NCBI GenBank assembly: GCA_964597355.1
Contig: CAZQWS010000005.1
Coordinates: 903 to 64,902 of the forward strand
Direction: 5' to 3'
Origin: an uncultured Bdellovibrionales bacterium
Lineage (GTDB): Bacteria; Patescibacteriota; Minisyncoccia; Moranbacterales; UBA1568
DNA length: 64,000 nt
In this document: positions 8,668-17,667 of the stretch, one piece after another
Layout of the letters: every line of letters begins with the position of its first letter
Position numbering within the stretch: the stretch's first letter is position 1
The notes under the pieces: model-generated
The model's input: the letters and a program-made list of their open reading frames with translations, nothing else
What the model was told of the DNA's origin: nothing
The model's database searches: none
Program-made: the position numbers and the translations under genes

Positions 8668-10071
8668 ATGCTTAAAAAAGATTTTTTCAAAGGCAAGCGA
8701 GTTACTGTGTTTGGTGTTGGCTTGAATGGAGGAGCTCTCGGTGCAATTGAATTTCTCATCCAGTCGGGCGTTCGGGAGGTAATTGCTACAGATATCCGAA
8801 GTCGAGAAGAACTCGCTCCAACACTCGAAAAGCTCAAGAAATACAAAAATATCGTCTATGTTCTCGGTCAGCACCGACCTGAGGATTTTATGAATGTCGA
8901 CATGGTAGTAAAGACGCCTGGTATTCCATGGACCAACGAGTATGTGAAACGAGCGGTAGAAAAAAAGATTCCTGTGGAGACCGATGCTAGTCTCTTTTTC
9001 CAAATGGTGAAAAATAAGACCATTGCAGTAACGGGAACGCGAGGAAAATCAACGACGGCTTCGCTCATAGCCCATATACTCGAACAATCGGGGAAACCAG
9101 TGGTGCGGGTGGGGATTAATCAAATTGGCTTCTTAAGCGAACTCGGGAAAATAACTCCAGAGAGCATTATTGTCGCAGAACTCTCCTCTTGGCGTCTTTC
9201 TTCACTTCGTAAAATAGAGTGGCGGCCAGATATTTCTGTCGTCACCAATCTCTTTCCTGACCATCAAAACTACTACAAGAGCATGGAAGCGTATGCGAAG
9301 GATAAGCAGGTTATTCTTGAATTTCAGAAAGAGACGGATACTGCGGTACTTAACTTCGATCATGAAGTCGTGCGAAGTTGGGGTGAAAAAGCTTTAGCGA
9401 AACGGTATTTCTTCTCTCAGTCAGGGCAGTCTCTGGAAAACGGCGTGAGTCTTGTAAACGGCGAGGCGGTTGAATACGTTCATGGTGTGATCCAGCCATT
9501 ATGCTCACTCGTGACGCCGTTCTTGGTAGGGGAGCACAATAAAGCCAACGTACTCTCGAGCGTGGCAGCTACGCATGCGCTTGGTATTCCAGGAGAAAAA
9601 ATCCAAAAGGCCCTAGAAACATTCCATGGCCTTCCCCATCGATTTGAGTTCGTAACTACCAAAAATGATATTACCTATATCAATGATACGGCTGCGACTT
9701 CGCCAGATGCATTAGTCGCTGCGCTCAATACTTTGACGACCCCAGCCGTGCTCATTGCTGGTGGAGCTGACAAAAATTTTGATTTCACGAGCCTTGTCCC
9801 GGTCATGTATGAAAAGACAAAGGCCATCATTCTTTTCAAAGGAACCGGAACAGAAAAGTTGTTACCACTCTTGGAAAAGTACGCTAAAGAGAAAGGGGAG
9901 GAGCGCATCTTTCCTGTAGTTGGTTCGATGCGTGATGCTGTCACGGTGGCCGAAGAAAATGCCGAAGCGGGAGATACCATCCTTCTCTCCCCAGGGATGG
10001 CGAGCTTTGGGATCTTCAAGAACGAGTTTGATCGCGGGGAACAATTTCGCCAGGCGGTCAAAGAGATGTAG
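8668..10071 (+). CDS. murD: UDP-N-acetylmuramoylalanine--D-glutamate ligase
   Basis: 'KRVTVFGVGLNGGA', Mur ligase P-loop 'AVTGTRGKSTT', 467 aa. Confidence 0.85.
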   Translation: MLKKDFFKGKRVTVFGVGLNGGALGAIEFLIQSGVREVIATDIRSREELAPTLEKLKKYKNIVYVLGQHRPEDFMNVDMVVKTPGIPWTNEYVKRAVEKKIPVETDASLFFQMVKNKTIAVTGTRGKSTTASLIAHILEQSGKPVVRVGINQIGFLSELGKITPESIIVAELSSWRLSSLRKIEWRPDISVVTNLFPDHQNYYKSMEAYAKDKQVILEFQKETDTAVLNFDHEVVRSWGEKALAKRYFFSQSGQSLENGVSLVNGEAVEYVHGVIQPLCSLVTPFLVGEHNKANVLSSVAATHALGIPGEKIQKALETFHGLPHRFEFVTTKNDITYINDTAATSPDALVAALNTLTTPAVLIAGGADKNFDFTSLVPVMYEKTKAIILFKGTGTEKLLPLLEKYAKEKGEERIFPVVGSMRDAVTVAEENAEAGDTILLSPGMASFGIFKNEFDRGEQFRQAVKEM

Positions 10072-10080
10072 TGTCCATAT

Positions 10081-10109
10081 TTGACTTTTTTATCCAGGAT
10101 GCTAATATA
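10081..10109 (+). promoter_or_regulatory. sigma70-like promoter for the csoR-like gene (-35 TTGACT, 17-nt spacer, -10 TAATAT)
   Basis: TTGACT at 10081-10086 and TAATAT at 10104-10109, 30 nt upstream of the ATG. Confidence 0.5.
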
Positions 10110-10125
10110 CCCATAGAGGGTATAT
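10105..10125. promoter_or_regulatory. CsoR-family operator dyad ATATACCC-N5-GGGTATAT
   Basis: Perfect 8-bp inverted repeat 'atataccc ataga gggtatat' overlapping the -10/TSS immediately upstream of the CsoR/RcnR-family repressor gene; matches the ATACCC..GGGTAT architecture of CsoR-type sites. Confidence 0.6.
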
Positions 10126-10137
10126 TTTTCTTTTCCT

Positions 10138-10386
10138 ATGCCAAATGCAAAAATAACTAATCCTGTCTTTTCCCGCATCGCTCGGATTGAGGGACAGCTT
10201 AAGGGTGTGCGGCGCATGGTTGAGGAAAAGAAAGATTGTCTTCAGGTAATCACGCAGATTCAAGCTATCCGCGAAGCGGTCGCTATGCTTGGGGTAGAGC
10301 TCCTCAAGGATGACATTGCCTGTAAGTGGGATGGCAAGAAGAAGATCGATGAAGGCTATCTCAAATCCTTGTTCAAAATGCAGTAG
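10138..10386 (+). CDS. metal/thiol-sensing transcriptional repressor, CsoR/RcnR/FrmR (DUF156) family
   Basis: 82 aa all-helical protein, conserved Cys in 'EKKDCLQVITQIQAIREA' helix alpha2 and a second Cys 'DIACKW'; no intervening His (two-Cys CstR/FrmR-like variant). Confidence 0.7.
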   Translation: MPNAKITNPVFSRIARIEGQLKGVRRMVEEKKDCLQVITQIQAIREAVAMLGVELLKDDIACKWDGKKKIDEGYLKSLFKMQ

Positions 10387-10420
10387 TTCTTTATTTGTAA
10401 CGTAACTAGTGGAGACGCGT

Positions 10421-11185
10421 ATGAACCAGTACATTCCCAAAGTTGAAGGCCATGTGCTTGTTCTTGGCGGCAGCGGTGGCATCGGTTCGGAAGTCGCTCG
10501 GGCCATGGTAGCTCTTGGAGCGAGTGCGGTGACTTTTACTTATGGAAAGAAGCGGGAAGTTGCTGAAGCCTTGAAACAAGAGTTCGAGTCACAAGGTATC
10601 AAAGTTCATTTTGCCTCGATTAATCGCTCGGATGAGGGCGCGTTCAAGGCGTTCCTTCAAGAAGCCATTACGCTTCAGGGTGGGGAAGTGACTGCCATGG
10701 TGGATGCTATCGGTATTTCACCCAATACTCACCATCTCGAACAGACTATGGATGAGTGGCGCAACGTGATGCAGGTGAATGTGATCGATGCTTTTGTTTC
10801 TACCCGTGCCGTTCTTGAGCGGATGCGGGAGAAAGAAGTGAAGGGTTCGGTTGTTCTCATCACTTCAACCAATGGTGTCAATTCTTGGGCTTCGTACTCG
10901 ATGCATTATGATGCATCCAAGGCGGCACTTGTACCCATGCTCCGTGGTTTTGCTGAAGAGTATGCCAAATACGGCATCCGTATCAATGGCTTGGCACCAG
11001 GTTGGATTGACACAGAAATGAATGTTACGTTGCCTCCAGGGGAAAAAGAAAAGGAAACCGCCAAGATTTGGCTCGGACGTTTCGCGACACCAGCCGAAGT
11101 AGCTTCGATGGCTGCGATCCTCAGCAGTTCGTCTGCTTCGTACATTACCGGTCAAAACATCATGATTGATGGCGGCTATCGGTAA
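10421..11185 (+). CDS. short-chain dehydrogenase/reductase (SDR), 3-oxoacyl-ACP reductase-like
   Basis: 'VLVLGGSGGIGSEVA' Rossmann motif and catalytic 'YDASKAAL' (YxxxK). ORF track starts at GTG 10409; ATG 10421 with GGAG SD preferred. Confidence 0.8.
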   Translation: MNQYIPKVEGHVLVLGGSGGIGSEVARAMVALGASAVTFTYGKKREVAEALKQEFESQGIKVHFASINRSDEGAFKAFLQEAITLQGGEVTAMVDAIGISPNTHHLEQTMDEWRNVMQVNVIDAFVSTRAVLERMREKEVKGSVVLITSTNGVNSWASYSMHYDASKAALVPMLRGFAEEYAKYGIRINGLAPGWIDTEMNVTLPPGEKEKETAKIWLGRFATPAEVASMAAILSSSSASYITGQNIMIDGGYR

Positions 11186-11187
11186 GA

Positions 11188-12195
11188 TTGAGAGAGGGTT
11201 TTGTGGAAGCAAGACCCTCTCAATCATTTTTTGAAACGCTAAATTATTTTTCAAACAACAAATATATGTATGATGTAATCATCATTGGGGGAGGACCTGG
11301 AGGAGTAGCGGCTGGTGTATATACAGCCCGCAAACAAATGAAGACACTTTTTCTCACACAGGATTTTTTAAGTCAGTCGGTAGTATCAGCATCAATCGAA
11401 AACTGGATTGGTACGGTGACGGTGCCAGGCTATGAATTTGGCCAGATGCTTGAGAAGCATCTCCGCGCTCAGGAAAACATTGAGATTAAGACGGGGACGA
11501 AAGCTGCGAAAGTTTCTGAACGTGCCGAAGGTGGGTATGTGGTGGAAACAGAAGTCGGAGAAAAATTTGAAACCAAGACGGTCATCATTGCCTCTGGTGG
11601 ACGGCACCGCCATCTCGAAGTACCGGGTGAAGAAAAATTTGTTGGGAAGGGCGTGGTGTATTGTTCGACCTGTGATGCGCCATTTTTCCGTGACCGCAAA
11701 GTGGCTGTCGTGGGGAGTGGTAATTCGGCTCTTGAAGCGGTAGAAGATCTTATTCCGTACGCTAAAGAGATTGTACTCTTGGTTCGTTCTGGAGAATTAA
11801 AAGGGGACAAGGTTACTCAGGATAATATTTTTACTTCACCAAAAGTAAGCGTGCGTTATCATGTGACTACCCAATCGATTCTTGGTGAAAACAAAGTAGA
11901 GGGGATTGCGCTCATGAACACAGAGACAAATACGCCGGAAGAAATTGCTCTCGATGGTGTGTTCGTGGAAATTGGTATGCTCCCCAATACGGAATTCGTG
12001 AAGGATATAGTAGAGCTCAATGAAGGGGGAGAGATTGTGGTAGACGCACGGACTGCCAGCACCTCGAAGCCTGGTATCTTCGCGACAGGAGATGCGACAG
12101 ACCTTCCCTATAAGCAAAACAATATTTCCGCTGGCGTAGGCGTCACAGCAGCTCTCTCAGCTTATGATTTTATTCGCAAAGGCAAGGCAGAGTAG
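11188..12195 (+). CDS. trxB: thioredoxin-disulfide reductase
   Basis: FAD motif 'YDVIIIGGGPGGVAAGVY', redox-active 'CSTCDAPFF' (CxxC), NADPH motif 'VAVVGSGNSALE'. Probable true start ATG 11266 (MYDVIIIGGG); the 11188 TTG extension is doubtful. Confidence 0.85.
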   Translation: MREGFVEARPSQSFFETLNYFSNNKYMYDVIIIGGGPGGVAAGVYTARKQMKTLFLTQDFLSQSVVSASIENWIGTVTVPGYEFGQMLEKHLRAQENIEIKTGTKAAKVSERAEGGYVVETEVGEKFETKTVIIASGGRHRHLEVPGEEKFVGKGVVYCSTCDAPFFRDRKVAVVGSGNSALEAVEDLIPYAKEIVLLVRSGELKGDKVTQDNIFTSPKVSVRYHVTTQSILGENKVEGIALMNTETNTPEEIALDGVFVEIGMLPNTEFVKDIVELNEGGEIVVDARTASTSKPGIFATGDATDLPYKQNNISAGVGVTAALSAYDFIRKGKAE

Positions 12196-12211
12196 ATTAA
12201 TCGTCTTTACT

Positions 12212-12275
12212 ACTTGGAAGCCGAACTTCCAAGTAAGAATAGATGGTAAAAAGAGGTTTATCCAAGCCTCTTTCT
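12212..12275 (+). terminator. trxB downstream tandem hairpins (9-bp stem acttggaag/cttccaagt; second hairpin agagg..cctct followed by TTTCT)
   Basis: Inverted repeats read directly at 12212-12234 and 12251-12275 followed by a T-rich stretch. Confidence 0.55.
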
Positions 12276-12290
12276 CATGCCACAAATGAC

Positions 12291-12318
12291 TAGACAAAAT
12301 AGCAAAAAAGTGTATAAT
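12291..12318 (+). promoter_or_regulatory. promoter of DGR target gene 1 (-35 TAGACA, 16-nt spacer, extended -10 TGTATAAT)
   Basis: tagaca 12291-12296, tgtataat 12311-12318; homologous copies upstream of target 2 (13361-13389) and of ORF 37494 (37332-37360). Confidence 0.6.
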
Positions 12319-12470
12319 GTACTGTTCGTTAAAAATTCAGAGTTTTGCCAGAGCGAAGAGATTTTTACTTGGAGGCCGGATCCCCAAGAAGACCTCCAAG
12401 AAGGGTAGAGACTTCTTCACTCTGGCAGACTACTCGAATTTTCGAGAGGCCATGAGTAAAAGGAATTGTC
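12319..12470 (+). other. ~150-nt structured 5' leader of DGR target 1 (nested inverted repeats gccagagcgaagag.../...cttcactctggc and cttggaggcc.../gacctccaag)
   Basis: Long imperfect hairpins between the promoter and the AAGGA SD/ATG 12471; a homologous leader core (ccagagcg...cttcttc.ctctgg) occurs at 37386-37432. Confidence 0.5.
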
Positions 12471-13100
12471 ATGACACAGCGTGTCGCCGACGAAGTCATC
12501 TCACGTTTTGCACGTCAACAGCACGATTGGATGGGGCGTGTCCTCAAGGGATCGCTTGATCCAACCGAAGTGGCCCGGGTCGTGCAGGCCATTATCGATC
12601 GTGGTTTACGCTACCCACTGCTTTCGGAAAGGAAGCTCCTCAAGCCCGTCGCCACGGCGACCGCGGCCAAGGATCCGCCCTTCGTGAACGAGTTCTTCCA
12701 GAGCCGTCCCGGCCTCTACGTCTGGGACTCGTTCCGTGAACGCTTCGATCTCAAGGCATTATCCCAGTCGGTGGGCGGCCGTCCCTACGTCGCCTCTCTC
12801 TTGAAGTTGAACGCCTACGATCGTGACATTCGCCGGGAACTGCCGGAGAACAACCTCTCGGCCTTGGAAGACATCGCCGGCTTCATCGAGGCCCAGCCGA
12901 ATGGCAAGGAGGGCTTCCTTCTCACTAACGGTTACGCGAACATCTTCTACGTCGAAGGGCGTAACGGTGAAGTCTTCTCCGTGGATGTTTTCTGGTTCTC
13001 CGACCGCCGCCGGTGGAGCGTCCGCGACTGGAGGCTCGACGAGAATGGCTCGTGGAGTGCTGGCGACCAGGTTCTCTGCCCCGGCAACGCCGCACTCTGA
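12471..13100 (+). CDS. DGR target protein paralog 1 (variable C-terminal domain, VR1)
   Basis: 209 aa, ~60% GC vs ~48% background. Shares 'FQSRPGLYVWDSFRER...PYVASLLK.NAYDRDIRRELPEN.LS.LEDIAGFIEAQP.GK.GFLL.NGYAN.FYVEG.NGE' with the downstream paralog; its C-terminal ~115 nt align to the TR with mostly adenine-site differences. Confidence 0.8.
   Translation: MTQRVADEVISRFARQQHDWMGRVLKGSLDPTEVARVVQAIIDRGLRYPLLSERKLLKPVATATAAKDPPFVNEFFQSRPGLYVWDSFRERFDLKALSQSVGGRPYVASLLKLNAYDRDIRRELPENNLSALEDIAGFIEAQPNGKEGFLLTNGYANIFYVEGRNGEVFSVDVFWFSDRRRWSVRDWRLDENGSWSAGDQVLCPGNAAL
12972..13086 (+). repeat. VR1: variable repeat at the 3' end of target gene 1 (diverged from TR)
   Basis: Aligns codon-for-codon with TR 14504-14620; ~20 differences at TR adenines plus ~12 non-adenine differences. 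Confidence 0.6.
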
Positions 13101-13142
13101 CCCTTCAGTCCATTGGGCAAAGACCCTTGGATACTTAGTCCC

Positions 13143-13193
13143 TTAGACCCTTGGAAACCGCATCGCGGCTACCGGGGGTCTTTTTGTTTTGCT
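13143..13193 (+). repeat. 51-bp element ttagacccttggaaaccgcatcgcggctaccgggggtctttttgttttgct downstream of VR1 (identical copy downstream of VR2); hairpin plus T-run, candidate terminator/IMH-associated structure
   Basis: Exact 51-bp identity between 13143-13193 and 14224-14274; contains ccgc-atc-gcgg hairpin and gaccc/gggtc flanks, then TTTTTGTTTT; preceded by tandem GACCCTTGGA motifs. Confidence 0.6.
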
Positions 13194-13195
13194 CC

Positions 13196-13281
13196 CCTAC
13201 AAGCAGAACAATATTTCAGCCGGTGTAGGTGTGACCGCGGCGTTGTCAGCCTATGACTTTATCCGTAAAGGCAAAGGTTAG
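13196..13281 (+). pseudogene. duplicated 3' fragment of trxB (encodes '..PYKQNNISAGVGVTAALSAYDFIRKGKG*', no start)
   Basis: ~80% nt identity to trxB 12111-12195; followed by duplicated hairpin (13283-13303, compensatory changes preserve stem), terminator hairpin (13318-13346) and promoter. Confidence 0.8.
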
Positions 13282-13360
13282 ATTGGGAAGCCCGGCTTCC
13301 AAGTAAGAAGAGGTAGTAAAAAGAGGCTTGAGTAAGCCTCTTTTTCGTACCCCGTATGAC

Positions 13361-13389
13361 TAGACAAAAGTACCAAAAAGGTGTACAAT
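13361..13389 (+). promoter_or_regulatory. promoter of DGR target gene 2 (-35 TAGACA, 17-nt spacer, -10 TACAAT with upstream TG)
   Basis: Duplicate of the 12291-12318 promoter module. Confidence 0.55.
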
Positions 13390-13463
13390 TATAGGTTGCA
13401 GGTGAGAACTTGCTTCTGCCCCGATTCCCGGCATATGGGAATTACCTTGAAAAGGAGACTGCG

Positions 13464-14168
13464 ATGACGACTCAGTCGATCACGCAAGACCAGGAAAAGC
13501 AACTGAAGCGCTTCCTCGAAGACGCGTCCATAGCGGCGACCCGTTCGGCCCTTGCGCAGGTGTCCCTCGACAAAGAGGGCTCCCAGCAGGTCATCGAACG
13601 GGGCGACCAGCTCAAGGCCGAAATCGAACGCGCCACCGTCGCCATCCTGAAGAAGTTGAGTTCCCGCTATTCGGTCGTCGGTGAAACACGGCTCCTCAAG
13701 CCCGCCGCCGCCTCGACCGCTCGGGCCCGGACTAAGCCGTTCGACCCCTCCGAGTTCTTCCAGAACCGTCCCGGGCTTTACGTCTGGGATTCGTTCCGCG
13801 AGCGGCTCGACATCGAAAACCGCAAGCTCGTTCCGTCGGCTCCCGAACGTCCCTATGTGGCGTCCCTCCTGAAGTCGAATGCCTATGACCGAGACATCCG
13901 CCGGGAATTGCCCGAGAACCATCTCTCGACACTCGAAGACATCGCGGGCTTCATCGAAGCCCAGCCGGAAGGCAAGTCGGGGTTCCTCCTGAACAACGGC
14001 TACGCGAACAACTTCTACGTCGAAGGACACAACGGCGAAATCTTCGCCGTGCGTGTCCTCTGGTACTCGGACAACCTTGAGTGGGACGTCCGCGTTTGGT
14101 TCCTCGATGAGCGTGACTGGTGGCGCGCCGAGCGCCAGGTCGTCTGTCCCGGAAACGTGTCGCTCTGA
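13464..14168 (+). CDS. DGR target protein paralog 2 (variable C-terminal domain, VR2)
   Basis: ATG 13464 with AAGGAG SD (ORF track extends to TTG 13410); 234 aa, GC-rich, paralog of 12471-13100; last ~38 codons are the VR matching the TR. Confidence 0.85.
   Translation: MTTQSITQDQEKQLKRFLEDASIAATRSALAQVSLDKEGSQQVIERGDQLKAEIERATVAILKKLSSRYSVVGETRLLKPAAASTARARTKPFDPSEFFQNRPGLYVWDSFRERLDIENRKLVPSAPERPYVASLLKSNAYDRDIRRELPENHLSTLEDIAGFIEAQPEGKSGFLLNNGYANNFYVEGHNGEIFAVRVLWYSDNLEWDVRVWFLDERDWWRAERQVVCPGNVSL
14040..14153 (+). repeat. VR2: variable repeat at the 3' end of target gene 2
   Basis: 114-nt alignment to TR 14504-14617: 21 substitutions, every one at a TR adenine (aat>cgt, aac>ctc/tac/gac/cgc/ttc, aag>gag, gat>gtt, agg>tgg, cca>ccc), zero at C/G/T positions. 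Confidence 0.9.
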
Positions 14169-14223
14169 CGCTTCGGTCCCTTGGGTCTCTGATTTGTATT
14201 CTGACCCTTGGACCCTCAGTCTC

Positions 14224-14274
14224 TTAGACCCTTGGAAACCGCATCGCGGCTACCGGGGGTCTTTTTGTTTTGCT
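14224..14274 (+). repeat. second copy of the 51-bp post-VR hairpin/T-run element
   Basis: Identical to 13143-13193. Confidence 0.6.
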
Positions 14275-14503
14275 ACAGTAAAAGCGGTATGTTGAAAATC
14301 CCTTCCGGCTACGGCTGGCAGAGCAAGATGCTGGAATGAAAGCGGATGAGAGCCGGAGCAGATACCAACTTCTTCGGGAGAACGCTTTTGTTTCAAAAAA
14401 TATATTGCGTTGGTGTCTTGAGCTTGAGGACTTCGAGGTCCCGCATACGATACAGCTCTGAGAGTAGTCGAGGAGCAGTGGAACGGACGGCTCAAGGCAC
14501 GGA

Positions 14504-14620
14504 ATCTTCGCCGTGAATGTCAACTGGAACTCGGACAACCTTAAGTGGAACGTCAACGATTGGAACCTCGATGAGAATGACAGGTGGAACGCCAAGAACC
14601 AGGTCGTCTGTCCAGGCCAC
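14504..14620 (+). repeat. DGR template repeat (TR)
   Basis: Truncated copy of the target 3' end lacking the N-terminal gene body and start codon; encodes '...IFAVNVNWNSDNLKWNVNDWNLDENDRWNAKNQVVCPG' with 8 AAC + 2 AAT codons exactly at the positions that vary in VR1/VR2. Confidence 0.9.
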
Positions 14621-14638
14621 GCACAAAGTTTCTCTCGC

Positions 14639-14989
14639 CTATTTCGGCGGGAGTTTTGTTTCGAGGCCTTTCTTCCAACCGCCAAGCATCCGGCCTGTTT
14701 CGTTCAACTCCATTGAAAGAGTAGAATACTTCTTGTGATCAATGAGTTTATTTTCCCAACCAAGCTGAAGAAAAAACTTTATGATATCTACCTTTCCGAC
14801 GGTGGCTGTTAAATAGGCTATTTTTTGTTCTGATTTGGTATACTGAGCTCGAAAGATATACTCGAGAGCTTCAAGAAAAATTGCATCTACTTTACCGCCA
14901 AAAGTATAGCGATGGGTTTTGGGAATATGCGGAACACACTGAAGCCACAAATTATATGAAAGTTTTAACTTCTGAACCACTGGCAACAC
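14639..14989 (-). CDS. avd: DGR accessory variability determinant (Avd), four-helix-bundle / 23S rRNA-IVS protein family
   Basis: ~113-116 aa. The pattern 'PKTHRYTFGGKVDAIFLEALEYIF...KIAYLTATVGKVDIIKFFLQLGWE...ETGRMLGGWKKGLE' parallels Bordetella phage Avd ('PRKHGVAREMFLKCLLGQVELF...EVGRILGSWIARVNRK'). Likely start GTG 14980 preceded by AGGTG SD; it lies between TR and RT but on the opposite strand. Confidence 0.7.
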   Translation of the reverse strand: MLPVVQKLKLSYNLWLQCVPHIPKTHRYTFGGKVDAIFLEALEYIFRAQYTKSEQKIAYLTATVGKVDIIKFFLQLGWENKLIDHKKYSTLSMELNETGRMLGGWKKGLETKLPPK

Positions 14990-14993
14990 CTGC

Positions 14994-15002
14994 GGGGGGG
15001 GG
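14994..15002. repeat. G9/C9 homopolymeric tract between divergent avd and RT
   Basis: Nine consecutive G (14994-15002) ~5 nt upstream of the avd SD on the minus strand and inside the open N-terminal extension of the RT frame. Confidence 0.8.
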
Positions 15003-15076
15003 TATTAGAGGCATATCGAAAACGTAAAAAATTAGACATCGCTTACCATGATATCATTTCTCTCGACAACCTCCTC

Positions 15077-16048
15077 TTGGCTTGGCAATCCTTTGTGAAA
15101 GGAAAAAGACAAAAGAAAGACGTTCAGGAATTTGAACTTCATTTGATGGATAACCTGATAGATCTTCGCGAGTCGTTCAAAACCAAAACCTATACCCACG
15201 GTTCCTACCATGCCTTCAAAGTAAATGATCCAAAGCCGAGAGATATTCACAAAGCAAGGGTGAAAGATCGAGTTCTTCATCATCTTCTCTATCAAGCTCT
15301 CTCACTCTTCTTCTTCAAGCGCTTCATTCATGACTCTTATTCTTGCCAGGATGGCAAAGGCATTCACAAGGCTTTACTCAGGTTTGAAACTTTCTCAAGG
15401 AAAGTTTCCAAGAACCATACGAAACAGTGTTTTGTCTTGAAATGCGACATCCGCAAGTTTTTCGCGAGTATTGATCAGGCAATACTTCTCAAGATTCTCG
15501 AAGAGTGGATTGAAGACAAAGAGGTACTGTGGCTTCTCAAAAGAGTGATACAGAGCTTCTGGATCCCGGATCACCCGCCCGAACGTACCAGTTCGGTACG
15601 GGCGGGAGTCCGGGATGACACAAAGAGAGGATTACCCCTGGGCAATCTGACATCCCAGCTTCTGGTGAATATCTATCTGAATGAGTTTGACCAGTTTGTG
15701 AAGCATGTTCTTAAAGTACGGCATTATATCCGGTATGCCGATGACTTTGTAATCCTCTCGCACGACAAGAGTGAACTTCAAACACTACTTATCAAGCTTC
15801 AAACCTTTCTCAAGTTGAGGCTTAATCTTGACCTTCACCCGAACAAAGTCTCAATAGAGACTCTTGGAAGTGGAGTAGACTTCTTGGGTTGGGTGCATTT
15901 TCCTGATCACAGAGTATTACGAACGGTAACGAAGCGGAGGATGATGAAGAAGGTGAATCCGAAGAATATTGCTTCGTACTTGGGAATGCTTGATTGGGGA
16001 AATGGGTGGAAATTAAAACAATTGATAGAAGATTTGTTTGACTTCTAG
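15077..16048 (+). CDS. DGR reverse transcriptase
   Basis: RT motifs: 'LLAWQSFVKGKRQKKDVQEF' (DGR RT N-terminus), 'PKPRDIHKARVKDRVLHHLLY', motif 4 'LPLGNLTSQLLVNIYL' (DGR-specific [LIV]GxxxSQ) and motif 5 'RYADDFVIL' (YxDD). The frame stays open upstream to 14969 with RT-like residues ('LEAYRKRKKLDIAYHDIISLDNLLL') but no in-frame ATG/GTG; TTG 15077 is the track start. Confidence 0.9.
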   Translation: MAWQSFVKGKRQKKDVQEFELHLMDNLIDLRESFKTKTYTHGSYHAFKVNDPKPRDIHKARVKDRVLHHLLYQALSLFFFKRFIHDSYSCQDGKGIHKALLRFETFSRKVSKNHTKQCFVLKCDIRKFFASIDQAILLKILEEWIEDKEVLWLLKRVIQSFWIPDHPPERTSSVRAGVRDDTKRGLPLGNLTSQLLVNIYLNEFDQFVKHVLKVRHYIRYADDFVILSHDKSELQTLLIKLQTFLKLRLNLDLHPNKVSIETLGSGVDFLGWVHFPDHRVLRTVTKRRMMKKVNPKNIASYLGMLDWGNGWKLKQLIEDLFDF

Positions 16049-16082
16049 GTAAAAAGCTGCTATACTGGTAGAGTAAATGAAG

Positions 16083-16110
16083 AAACGGGTGAATGCCCGT
16101 TTTCTTTTTT
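16083..16110 (+). terminator. rho-independent terminator after RT (aaacggg-tgaatg-cccgttt + TTTCTTTTTT)
   Basis: 7-bp GC-containing stem and T-run read directly. Confidence 0.7.
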
Positions 16111-16136
16111 ACAAGAGGAAATCCTCTTACAAATAC

Positions 16137-16195
16137 ACCACCACACCAATAGTGCCTTGAGTAAAGAGTATTTAGGGCTTTATTGGTGTGGTGGT
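16137..16195. other. perfect 15-bp stem-loop (accaccacaccaata ... tattggtgtggtggt, 29-nt loop) within a ~250-bp structured intergenic region
   Basis: Exact reverse complement arms; followed by further hairpins (ggcgaaagcc, ctggga..tcccag, gccgctt..aagcggc) up to 16330; no recognised ncRNA family motif. Confidence 0.4.
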
Positions 16196-16395
16196 ACATA
16201 GTAGTTAAAAGGCGAAAGCCTCCTATTCTGGGACAGGGTTCCCTCTCCCAGCGAGCAGTGCCAATTAAACGGTCCTGCCGCCACCAACAGTCTGCCGCTT
16301 CGGTCCATTGTGATCTAAGCGGCTTTGAATTTCCCCCTTGTCTTAGGTAATTTTTCAGCTTGAAAAAGAGGGTGTTTTGGGCTATACTCCCCCTT

Positions 16396-17667
16396 ATGGA
16401 AGTATTTGAAATTGAGGGCGGAAAACGCCTTGCTGGTACCATTGCCGTAGCTGGACTAAAGAATGCCGCTACGCCGATTATCGCGGCGACTTTATTGTCA
16501 CGTGAACCATCAATTTTGGAAAACATCCCTCGGATTGAGGATGTGTTTCGCATGCTTGAAATCGTGGAGAGTCTCGGAGCGACCGTAGAATGGGTAGGTG
16601 GGCAGACAGTAAAGATCACCCCGACGGATATTGACCCGAGTCACATGGATCAGGAAAAGGTAAAACGCCTGCGTTCCTCGATTCTCCTCTTGGGGGCACT
16701 CTCTGCCCAATTTGATAATTTTGAACTCTGTCAACCTGGTGGCTGTGTTATCGGTACTCGACCAGTAGAAGCGCACCTTGATGCCTTGATGAAGTTTGGG
16801 GTGAAAGTGGAACAAAAAGAAAAAGGCTATGTGATCGATGCGAGCGAACGACATGCAGCCAAAGTTGTTCTTCGTCAAATGTCAGTAACCGCCACCGAGA
16901 ATGCGATGCTGCTGGCAGCACGCTTGCCAGGTGATACCATGATCAAGATTGCCGCTTGTGAACCGCATGTGGTTGATCTGGGCCGTTTCCTGGAAAAAAT
17001 GGGAGTGGAGATTGATGGACTGGGTACGCATACGCTTACCATTCGTGGGAAGAAAGAGCTGCATGGAGCAACGCATGCGATCATGCCTGACCACAATGAA
17101 GCGGCGACCTACCTTATTTTGGGAGCAGCTACAGAGAGTGAGATTACGGTAGAAAACGCCCGTGAAGATGATCTTGATCTCGTACTAGAAAAACTCCGTG
17201 AGCTTGGTGTCTCGTTCACGATTACCCCTAATGCTATTACTATTCATCCAACCGATCACCTCAATGCCCCATCGCTCTTCATCGACCCACGTCCGTATCC
17301 AGGTATCCCAACTGATATCCAGGCACCCCTTGCTGTGCTTGCAACCCAAGCCGAAGGAGAAACACTTATTTTTGATACGCTTTACGAAGGCCGTTTTAAT
17401 TACGCTGTGGAATTAGAAAAAATGGGAGCAAAGCTTTCTGTGCTCAATCCTCATCAGGTGGTGGTGCATGGCAAGACACTTTTGCGTGGTACGGTGATCA
17501 AAAGTTATGACCTGCGTGCTGGGGCAGCCCTCATCATTGCTGCGCTGACTGCTCAAGGGAAAACAGTGATCGAAGATATCTATCAAGTAGACCGTGGCTA
17601 TGAGCGAATCGAAGAACGACTGCAGAAGATTGGCGCAAATATCAAAAGAGTAGGGCGCGGGGAATAG
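16396..17667 (+). CDS. murA: UDP-N-acetylglucosamine 1-carboxyvinyltransferase
   Basis: 'MEVFEIEGGKRLAGTIAVAGLKNAATPIIAATLL' and EPSP-synthase-like fold motifs ('PGGCVIGTRPV', 'YDLRAGAALIIAAL'). ATG 16396 preferred over TTG 16360. Confidence 0.85.
   Translation: MEVFEIEGGKRLAGTIAVAGLKNAATPIIAATLLSREPSILENIPRIEDVFRMLEIVESLGATVEWVGGQTVKITPTDIDPSHMDQEKVKRLRSSILLLGALSAQFDNFELCQPGGCVIGTRPVEAHLDALMKFGVKVEQKEKGYVIDASERHAAKVVLRQMSVTATENAMLLAARLPGDTMIKIAACEPHVVDLGRFLEKMGVEIDGLGTHTLTIRGKKELHGATHAIMPDHNEAATYLILGAATESEITVENAREDDLDLVLEKLRELGVSFTITPNAITIHPTDHLNAPSLFIDPRPYPGIPTDIQAPLAVLATQAEGETLIFDTLYEGRFNYAVELEKMGAKLSVLNPHQVVVHGKTLLRGTVIKSYDLRAGAALIIAALTAQGKTVIEDIYQVDRGYERIEERLQKIGANIKRVGRGE

Follow-up and report, generated by a model that had tools for sequence, protein, structure and literature searches.

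A variable repeat probably written by a template other than its neighbor in a Moranbacteria diversity-generating retroelement

RESULTS

A retroelement locus with two target genes

The 64,000-nt stretch of DNA analyzed here (the window) derives from a genome assigned to the Moranbacterales and contains a diversity-generating retroelement (DGR) located between a trxB-like gene and murA. Two paralogous target genes, target 1 and target 2, each end in a variable repeat (VR1 and VR2, respectively) and are followed by a template repeat (TR), the accessory gene avd, and a reverse transcriptase (RT) gene (Table 1). This study deals with the origin of VR1, for which the resident TR is probably not the template. 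The locus displays the features of a DGR, i.e., the RT motif PLGNLTSQ, an Avd protein, a TR/VR2 pair at the 3′ end of an open reading frame (ORF) that differs exclusively at adenines, and adenine-restricted variation between samples. The RT motif conforms to [ILV]GxxxSQ, which we take to be specific to DGR enzymes. The closest RT homologs found are encoded in Candidate Phyla Radiation (CPR) genomes, among them the RT beside the target gene of the Moranbacteria genome HYV45. Avd scored 53 bits with Pfam bAvd (cut-off, 40) and 73 bits with NCBIfam DivGenRetAVD (E value, 1.9e-20), which is under the 80-bit cut-off of the latter. The trxB-like gene is also found upstream of the target 1 orthologs at two other loci (L001 and L008) and is a conserved neighbor of target-1-type genes. 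The promoter-like site of target 1 lies within a repeat (D3) that recurs upstream of target 2.

Table 1. Features of the DGR locus and its flanks (window coordinates)
Feature	Position	Strand	Evidence or remark
trxB-like gene, thioredoxin-reductase-like flavoprotein	11188..12195	+	Pfam Pyr_redox_2, 1.7e-37
Promoter-like site upstream of target 1, TAGACA-16-TATAAT	12291..12318	+	11/12
Target 1 gene, 209 aa, intact ORF, Moranbacteria-specific DGR target family	12471..13100	+	Without Pfam domain
VR1, 37 codons at the target 1 C terminus	12972-13082	+	Gapless alignment to TR
VR1 3′ boundary, end resembling an initiation of mutagenic homing (IMH) site, CAGGTTCTCTGCCCCGGCAACGC	13069..13091	+	Identical to VR ends of L016 and L018
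Terminator-like hairpin and T-run of target 1	13145..13191	+	Inverted repeat 13145-13161 / 13165-13181
trxB 3′-end relic, left end of putative inserted module	13192..13274	+	Repeat D5, 80% identical to 12103-12185
Divergent DGR module: trxB relic, promoter copy, target 2, spacer, TR, Avd, RT	13192..16047	+
Target 2 gene, 234 aa, cognate target of the resident TR	13464..14168	+
VR2	14040..14150	+	TR differences all at adenines
Spacer upstream of TR, divergent window version	14285..14503	+
Resident TR, 111 nt, 33 A	14504..14614	+
Hairpin and T-run directly 3′ of TR	14626..14653	+	Kept after every TR of the family
Avd accessory gene, between TR and RT	14639..14989	-	Pfam bAvd, 5.3e-14
Reverse transcriptase ORF with PLGNLTSQ	15077..16048	+	Pfam RVT_1, 2.6e-24
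murA	from 16360	+

VR1 is not cognate to the resident TR

VR1, VR2, and the resident TR are three gapless, in-register copies of a 111-nt element. TR and VR2 differ at 21 positions, all of which are TR adenines (21/33 A and 0/78 non-A sites). VR1, compared with the same TR, shows 36 differences that affect 21 of the 33 adenines and 15 of the 78 non-A sites (Fisher P = 1.3e-5 for the adenine bias). These counts bear out the observation made in the initial annotation of this DNA, which had estimated about 20 adenine and about 12 non-adenine differences and had quoted the divergent 3′ strings correctly. At the 3′ boundary, VR1 reads CAGGTTCTCTGCCC and the resident TR CAGGTCGTCTGTCC (3 mismatches in 14 nt), while VR2 equals the TR; VR1 positions 13069-13081 read caggttctctgcc, and TR positions 14600-14613 read caggtcgtctgtcc. 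As a target of the resident TR, VR1 thus lacks both the restriction of mismatches to adenines and the identity at the 3′ boundary. Bases private to the resident TR include CTT (aligned to 13008-13010) and GTCGTCTGT at its 3′ end (aligned to 13072-13080), and VR1 carries at most one resident-TR-specific base (13052 G). The non-A differences fall mostly on third codon positions (11/15), and the scaffold residues are kept in VR1, indicating that the reading frame has been under purifying selection. Target 1 and target 2 are paralogs with 76% nucleotide identity over the 291 nt preceding the VR; their N-terminal halves are unalignable (45% nucleotide identity).

Retrohoming replaces the VR with TR-derived cDNA and thereby clears non-A mismatches in the tract converted from the 3′ boundary, as established for Bordetella phage BPP-1. 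The persistence in VR1 of 15 non-A mismatches, 3 of them in the 14-nt boundary, therefore argues that the resident TR has not written this repeat. The requirement of 3′ identity for homing is likewise taken over from BPP-1 and presumably applies here by analogy. A both-strand scan of the 64 kb (threshold, ≥55% identity at the 78 non-A positions) found no TR or VR copies beyond the three described. Neither a second TR, a TR-flank hairpin, nor a spacer copy was detected in the same 64 kb by the non-A scan, by blastn with an extended consensus TR plus spacer, or by a hairpin pattern search.

VR1 fits a TR type conserved in other Moranbacteria

We compared VR1 with the TRs of other Moranbacteria genomes, namely L011/L021 (HYV45 Moranbacteria genome), L014, L016, L018, and L023. 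The TRs of L014, L016, L018, and L021 are almost identical, with no more than 4 differences among them, and are accompanied by RTs that are ∼55 to 63% identical to the window RT. VR1 has 3 to 5 non-A mismatches to these four consensus TRs and 8 to that of L023, versus 15 to the resident TR. VR2 behaves in the opposite manner, with 13 to 17 non-A mismatches to the consensus TRs versus none to the resident one. The other loci in which both a family VR and a TR were found have one VR each, free of non-A mismatches to the TR (two in L014). Twelve of the 15 non-A mismatches between VR1 and the resident TR carry the base of the L016 TR (the chance of ≥12/15 is ∼3e-4), one more (TR position 14583) falls on a site where all consensus TRs have an adenine, and two are private to VR1 (12978 T and 12989 T). 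Aligned to any of these four TRs from other species, VR1 therefore shows the nearly A-only mismatches of a VR. Its 3′ end, CAGGTTCTCTGCCCCGGCAACGC, is the family standard, i.e., that of the L016 and L018 VRs, which match their own TRs perfectly.

Between the resident TR and the L011/L021 TR there are 15 differences; at all non-A positions, VR2 agrees with the resident TR. This TR is identical in two other samples. Relative to L011/L021, it has gained adenines at 14504, 14580, and 14594 and lost one at 14583, which shifts the set of diversifiable codons. The C-terminal consensus of the target family is ...NGYANIFYVEGKNGEVFAV.V.W.S..R.W.V..W.L.E.G.W.A..QVLCPGNAAL. VR1 keeps the scaffold R before W and the QVLCPGNAAL end, and the resident TR and VR2 specify L and QVVCPGNVSL at these places. 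Since the apparent non-A errors of VR1 are bases of the consensus TR, the derived sequence is that of the resident TR/VR2 pair; as judged from these alignments, it is this pair and not VR1 that has diverged. A pattern scan of the genome contig collection matched ten Moranbacteria loci, none from the window genome, and a 45-mer from target 1 had no match in JGI metagenomes.

Recent adenine-specific change in VR1

The cluster of target 1 at 90% protein identity has a sole other member, P0002 (92% identical). Its gene lies on a 202-kb contig in a related genome (L001), and two short contigs, which share this VR, encode it as well. Outside the VR, target 1 differs between the window and L001 at 6 of 516 nt. 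Within VR1, 25 of 111 nt differ, corresponding to 18 of the 29 adenine sites of the consensus TR and 7 of the 82 other sites (Fisher P = 3e-8 for this one genome pair). VR1 shares 10 of its 15 non-A mismatches to the resident TR with the L001 ortholog. Adenine-biased differences in an otherwise near-identical gene therefore indicate recent adenine diversification of VR1 by a consensus-type TR. According to this comparison, at least one of the two orthologs has been rewritten since their common ancestor, ∼1% of divergence back, by adenine mutagenesis from a template with consensus non-A bases.

The alignment of window positions 11250-13190 with L001 8779-10717 is a mosaic. Target 1 and the intergenic region upstream of it are 96 to 100% identical, trxB identity ranges from 68% to 97% in 100-nt bins, and the adh_short gene region gave no blastn match. 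This pattern suggests recombination or a recent exchange of the target 1 gene between lineages.

Variation between samples was evident in VR2. Over 1111 nt, L004 (SRR33452761) departs from the window only in VR2, at 12 sites that are all TR adenines, and the flanks (∼1000 nt) are unchanged; VR2 thus turns over on the shortest timescale that can be observed. VR1 is unchanged in L025 (SRR8893623; 100% identical to window positions 9788-13088), the one further assembly of this strain that extends over VR1. No further full-length VR1 variant of the window strain was found in the protein collection or its 90% cluster, and look-ups with the trxB and CsoR-like neighbors returned L025 only.

The slot downstream of target 1

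In blastn alignments, L001 matches the window up to 13191, where the target 1 terminator ends, and again from 16048, just after the RT stop codon. Window positions 13192-16047 are thus an indel relative to L001, with shared flanks on both sides. The window slot contains an 83-nt relic of the trxB 3′ end, a copy of the trxB-target intergenic region with its promoter-like site, target 2, the spacer, TR, Avd, and RT. The L001 slot contains a spacer, a 629-nt partial trxB copy, and an unrelated 299-aa ORF. The L001 spacer, directly after target 1, is 84 to 88% identical to the spacers of consensus TRs from other species and 72% identical to that of the window, and it is cut ∼29 nt before the TR start point of the aligned loci. 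The outlier is the window spacer, with 69 to 75% identity to all consensus-type spacers. An intact arrangement is found at L023, where a target-1-type gene is followed by its own spacer, a TR (18 differences, all at A), and Avd on the minus strand. We rejected an assembly chimera in the window, since L004, from another sample, independently connects the end of a copy-1-type terminator (exact match to 13164-13204) with the trxB relic and target 2; for bases 13089-13163, the NCBI contig is the sole coverage.

The region of L001 with the trxB duplicate and the ORF (10928-12531) shows 87% identity of the partial duplicate to the window trxB and a 299-aa product rich in charged residues, with no Pfam match on record. 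The noncoding spacer upstream of the TR (∼230 nt) is 84 to 97% identical across Moranbacteria species whose RTs are ∼55 to 63% identical to that of the window, which suggests a functional RNA or promoter element of the DGR. An Rfam scan of window positions 12000-16400 matched no family.

The target family

The targets belong to a family of ∼164 hypothetical proteins, all source-named members of which are from Candidatus Moranbacteria (CPR). No Pfam or NCBIfam domain was identified in this family. The AlphaFold2 (AF2) model of the target, built with 108 homologs, was confident (pLDDT, 89; pTM, 0.76), and Foldseek returned no match with an E value below 0.3 in PDB or BFVD. None of the domains that define variable proteins with the C-type lectin fold (CLec, FGE-sulfatase, or DUF1566, containing the VR) was recognized. 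In the model, the VR accounts for the last three beta strands, along which variable residues occupy alternating positions, suggesting that these residues line one face of a sheet. The target may thus represent a DGR variable-protein fold that is neither C-type lectin nor immunoglobulin (Ig).

Both N-terminal types, those of target 1 and target 2, are widespread in the family. Solitary family targets occur at L013, L015, L019, L039, and L041-L043, with neither RT, Avd, nor TR within several kilobases of sequence. The VR of L019 has no non-A mismatches to the TR of a different metagenome-assembled genome (MAG), L014. Remote or stranded targets may therefore be common in this family. At L024 (3686-4276), a target-1-type homolog (P0123; 43% identity) lies in a locus without a DGR and has lost the conserved CPGNAAL end. 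Judged by its sequence, P0123 has the appearance of a truly decayed family member, in contrast to VR1.

Other features of the locus

Avd lies on the opposite strand between TR and RT, and the same order is found in L014, L016, L023, and L035. Both target genes (window 12400-14300) have a G+C content of ∼58 to 63%, versus ∼42 to 50% for the flanking genes, Avd, and RT. A run of nine G residues (G9; 14994-15002) separates the divergent Avd and RT genes. The conserved RT N terminus (…KLDIAYHDIISLDNLLLAW…) is open in frame from 14969, with no ATG, GTG, or TTG before 15077, and conserved N-terminal residues reach upstream in frame to ∼15005. An ATG at 14956 would be in frame with the RT given a G8 run. 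Three other assemblies of the window strain also have G9, and two related RT loci have G8. Slippage or phase control, or else a noncanonical start, are possible explanations.

DISCUSSION

Our findings make it probable that VR1 is a genuine DGR variable repeat written by a consensus-type TR outside the window and that the resident TR is not its template. VR1 would have been generated by mutagenic retrohoming from a TR that is nearly invariant beside the target family in other Candidatus Moranbacteria, while the resident module (13192-16047) would fill the slot downstream of target 1 and rewrite VR2 only. A recent ancestor most likely carried trxB, target 1, the consensus spacer, a cognate TR (TR1), Avd, and RT in this order, and the window and L001 lineages would each have lost this consensus-type module by different rearrangements. 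In the window, the part downstream of the target 1 terminator may have been replaced by the homologous locus of a diverged donor, whose origin the trxB relic would betray; a two-module ancestral array with differential deletion would be an alternative route. Either course would leave VR1 with the last sequence received from its own TR. That VR1 is now stranded in this way is in our judgment somewhat favored, and likelier than continued service in trans.

Several points weigh against this interpretation. It may be that every adenine-site difference between the orthologs arose in the L001 lineage. Similarity between the two genomes is 98.8% for target 1 versus ∼89% for the neighboring trxB, a gap that points to recombination and blurs the timeline. 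L025 may come from the same sample as the MAG, so that a claim of a fixed VR1 would rest on almost nothing. The two or three private non-A bases of VR1 (12978 T, 12989 T, and 13052 G) could be either drift or states of its own TR. Finally, no cognate TR1 was seen for this genome, and we infer the template from other species and from the ortholog.

The most serious competitor, although an unlikely one, is that VR1 remains active, its template being a consensus-type TR that acts in trans from elsewhere in the genome and may or may not have an RT of its own. The almost perfect fit of VR1 to the consensus TRs, its adenine diversification since the split from the L001 ortholog, and the intactness of the target 1 gene, its promoter-like site, its terminator hairpin, and its family-standard 3′ end are all compatible with such service, as are the family members that lie kilobases from any RT, Avd, or TR and the fit of the L019 VR to the TR of another MAG. 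DGR targets not adjacent to their template are documented (PMC5758913). In addition, a second RT, 77% identical, is present in SRR33452761, a sample that also holds the window strain. However, this RT (∼72% nucleotide identity to that of the window) is on a 1187-nt contig found in Logan only and may belong to another organism, there is no second TR within the 64 kb, VR1 is unchanged in the only other assembly covering it, and the L001 remnant places the cognate module adjacent to target 1 rather than at a remote site. The closest RT relatives, P0126 and P0127 (74 to 77% amino acid identity), were also considered as a second DGR of the same genome and discarded; they are on 1.2- to 1.5-kb contigs without a TR and are probably from other organisms.

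Far less plausible is that one TR once served both paralogs in place, after which either homing to VR1 ceased and VR1 drifted or the TR itself drifted and VR2 followed. The tandem arrangement, the repeats flanking both genes, and the lack of resident-TR-specific bases in VR1 (except possibly 13052 G) would agree with such a history, and the third-position non-A divergence between VR1 and TR (11/36) is similar to that of the paralogs upstream (38/97; P = 0.42), as if there had been no homing since the paralogs split. Yet the non-A differences are family-consensus states shared with the ortholog and not drift of VR1, which moreover underwent recent adenine-specific change. The unalignable N-terminal halves, both of widespread types, speak against a recent in-place duplication. 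The L001 module was of consensus type, whereas the window spacer is only distantly similar to consensus-type spacers and the window RT is at most 77% identical to any RT found; this divergence is too large to have accumulated since the split from L001, with which target 1 and its flanks share 92 to 99% identity. In-place divergence of one TR is thus unlikely, because the divergence of the whole module (spacer, TR, Avd, and RT) greatly exceeds the 1 to 10% seen between the two genomes. Hardly credible, finally, is noncanonical (non-A-to-N) mutagenesis of VR1 by the resident RT. Surveys do report non-A-to-N changes in 23 to 46% of DGRs and differing patterns among the targets of one DGR (PMC5758913, PMC6642488), but random misincorporation would not place 12 of 15 substitutions on the consensus-TR base, 10 of them shared with the ortholog, and VR2, handled by the same RT, shows 0/78 non-A changes in two samples.

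The view of VR1 taken in the initial annotation, possibly an older or decaying target of the resident TR, has to be revised accordingly in most respects. It holds insofar as VR1 is a second VR-like C terminus not currently being rewritten by the resident TR, since one round of homing would remove all 15 mismatches, which VR2 lacks altogether. Drift is contradicted by the consensus origin of nearly all these mismatches, and the 3′ end taken as altered is the standard one, the diverged version being that of the resident TR and VR2. Target 1 shows no decay, as the gene is intact and retains a promoter-like site and a terminator hairpin. The idea of one TR serving two targets conflicts with the adenine pattern of the L001 ortholog and with the consensus-type module remnant that follows it. 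The comparison across genomes that had been suggested as a check of activity did reveal adenine-biased change in VR1, in line with the outcome named there as refuting decay, but between strains (the window and L001) and not within a population.

More tentatively, DGR modules in these very small CPR genomes may be exchanged whole between related lineages at one fixed slot (trxB ... murA), and each exchange would strand the VR of the previous target, a generalization about which we remain doubtful. If it were true, VR1 would be a dated molecular fossil of the previous, family-standard TR, and the incoming TR would be reprogrammed (the adenine gains and loss and two scaffold changes) so as to diversify different residues. 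The VR1/VR2 pair would then record template evolution and not target decay, and many catalogued non-A-to-N targets would be stranded VRs rather than products of low-fidelity reverse transcription. DGR surveys count non-adenine TR-VR differences as low-fidelity or noncanonical mutagenesis, especially in CPR and multitarget elements. For at least one such case, the window locus offers another, testable explanation, i.e., a noncognate VR beside a replaced template. This bears on the caution needed in annotating DGR targets as active or inactive, on the rate of module turnover in minimal genomes, and on TR evolution, given a TR that is almost invariant across species with RTs only ∼55 to 65% identical and of which the window TR is an outlier.

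In most respects the locus resembles the known DGRs of CPR/Patescibacteria (clade 2; Roux et al. 2021, PMC8144416; Wu et al. 2018, PMC5758913). They share an LGxxxSQ RT, Avd, a ∼110-nt TR rich in AAC/AAT codons, a small target ORF with the VR at its extreme 3′ end, A-only differences between TR and VR2, adenine-restricted change of VR2 between samples, and a chromosomal site. The window locus differs in the position of Avd, on the opposite strand between TR and RT, in a target without a Pfam domain or a Foldseek match to a solved or viral structure and not recognizably of the C-type lectin or Ig kind, and in a cassette that holds a second family VR noncognate to the TR. One survey found non-A-to-N differences in 23% of DGRs and a maximum of 11 per target (PMC5758913), which the 15 of VR1 exceed. 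Differing patterns in two targets of one DGR have been read as noncanonical mutagenesis or low RT fidelity, notably in CPR (PMC5758913, PMC6642488). The multitarget DGR ANKO01000117.1_3531_4562 (PMC5758913) likewise has two targets beside one TR, one with A-to-N changes only and the other with many non-A differences; in the window, by contrast, the non-A differences are probably inherited from another template lineage and reflect neither RT infidelity nor decay. VR1 is also reminiscent of the remote targets of Treponema denticola and Legionella (Wu et al. 2018), in which the VR gene is apart from the templating TR. Those targets, however, match their TR with A-only differences, whereas VR1 adjoins a mismatched TR and its matching TR was not found. 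With the Bordetella phage BPP-1 DGR (mtd/TR/avd/brt), the locus has in common the unidirectional transfer from TR to VR with adenine mutagenesis, a GC-rich IMH-like 3′ boundary in the VR and at the corresponding TR-proximal end, and a structured RNA element 3′ of the TR, and it differs in target fold and gene order. The window locus is thus a standard CPR-type DGR that involves no new mechanism or kind of system, and what sets it apart would be ordinary module turnover in a Moranbacteria genome.

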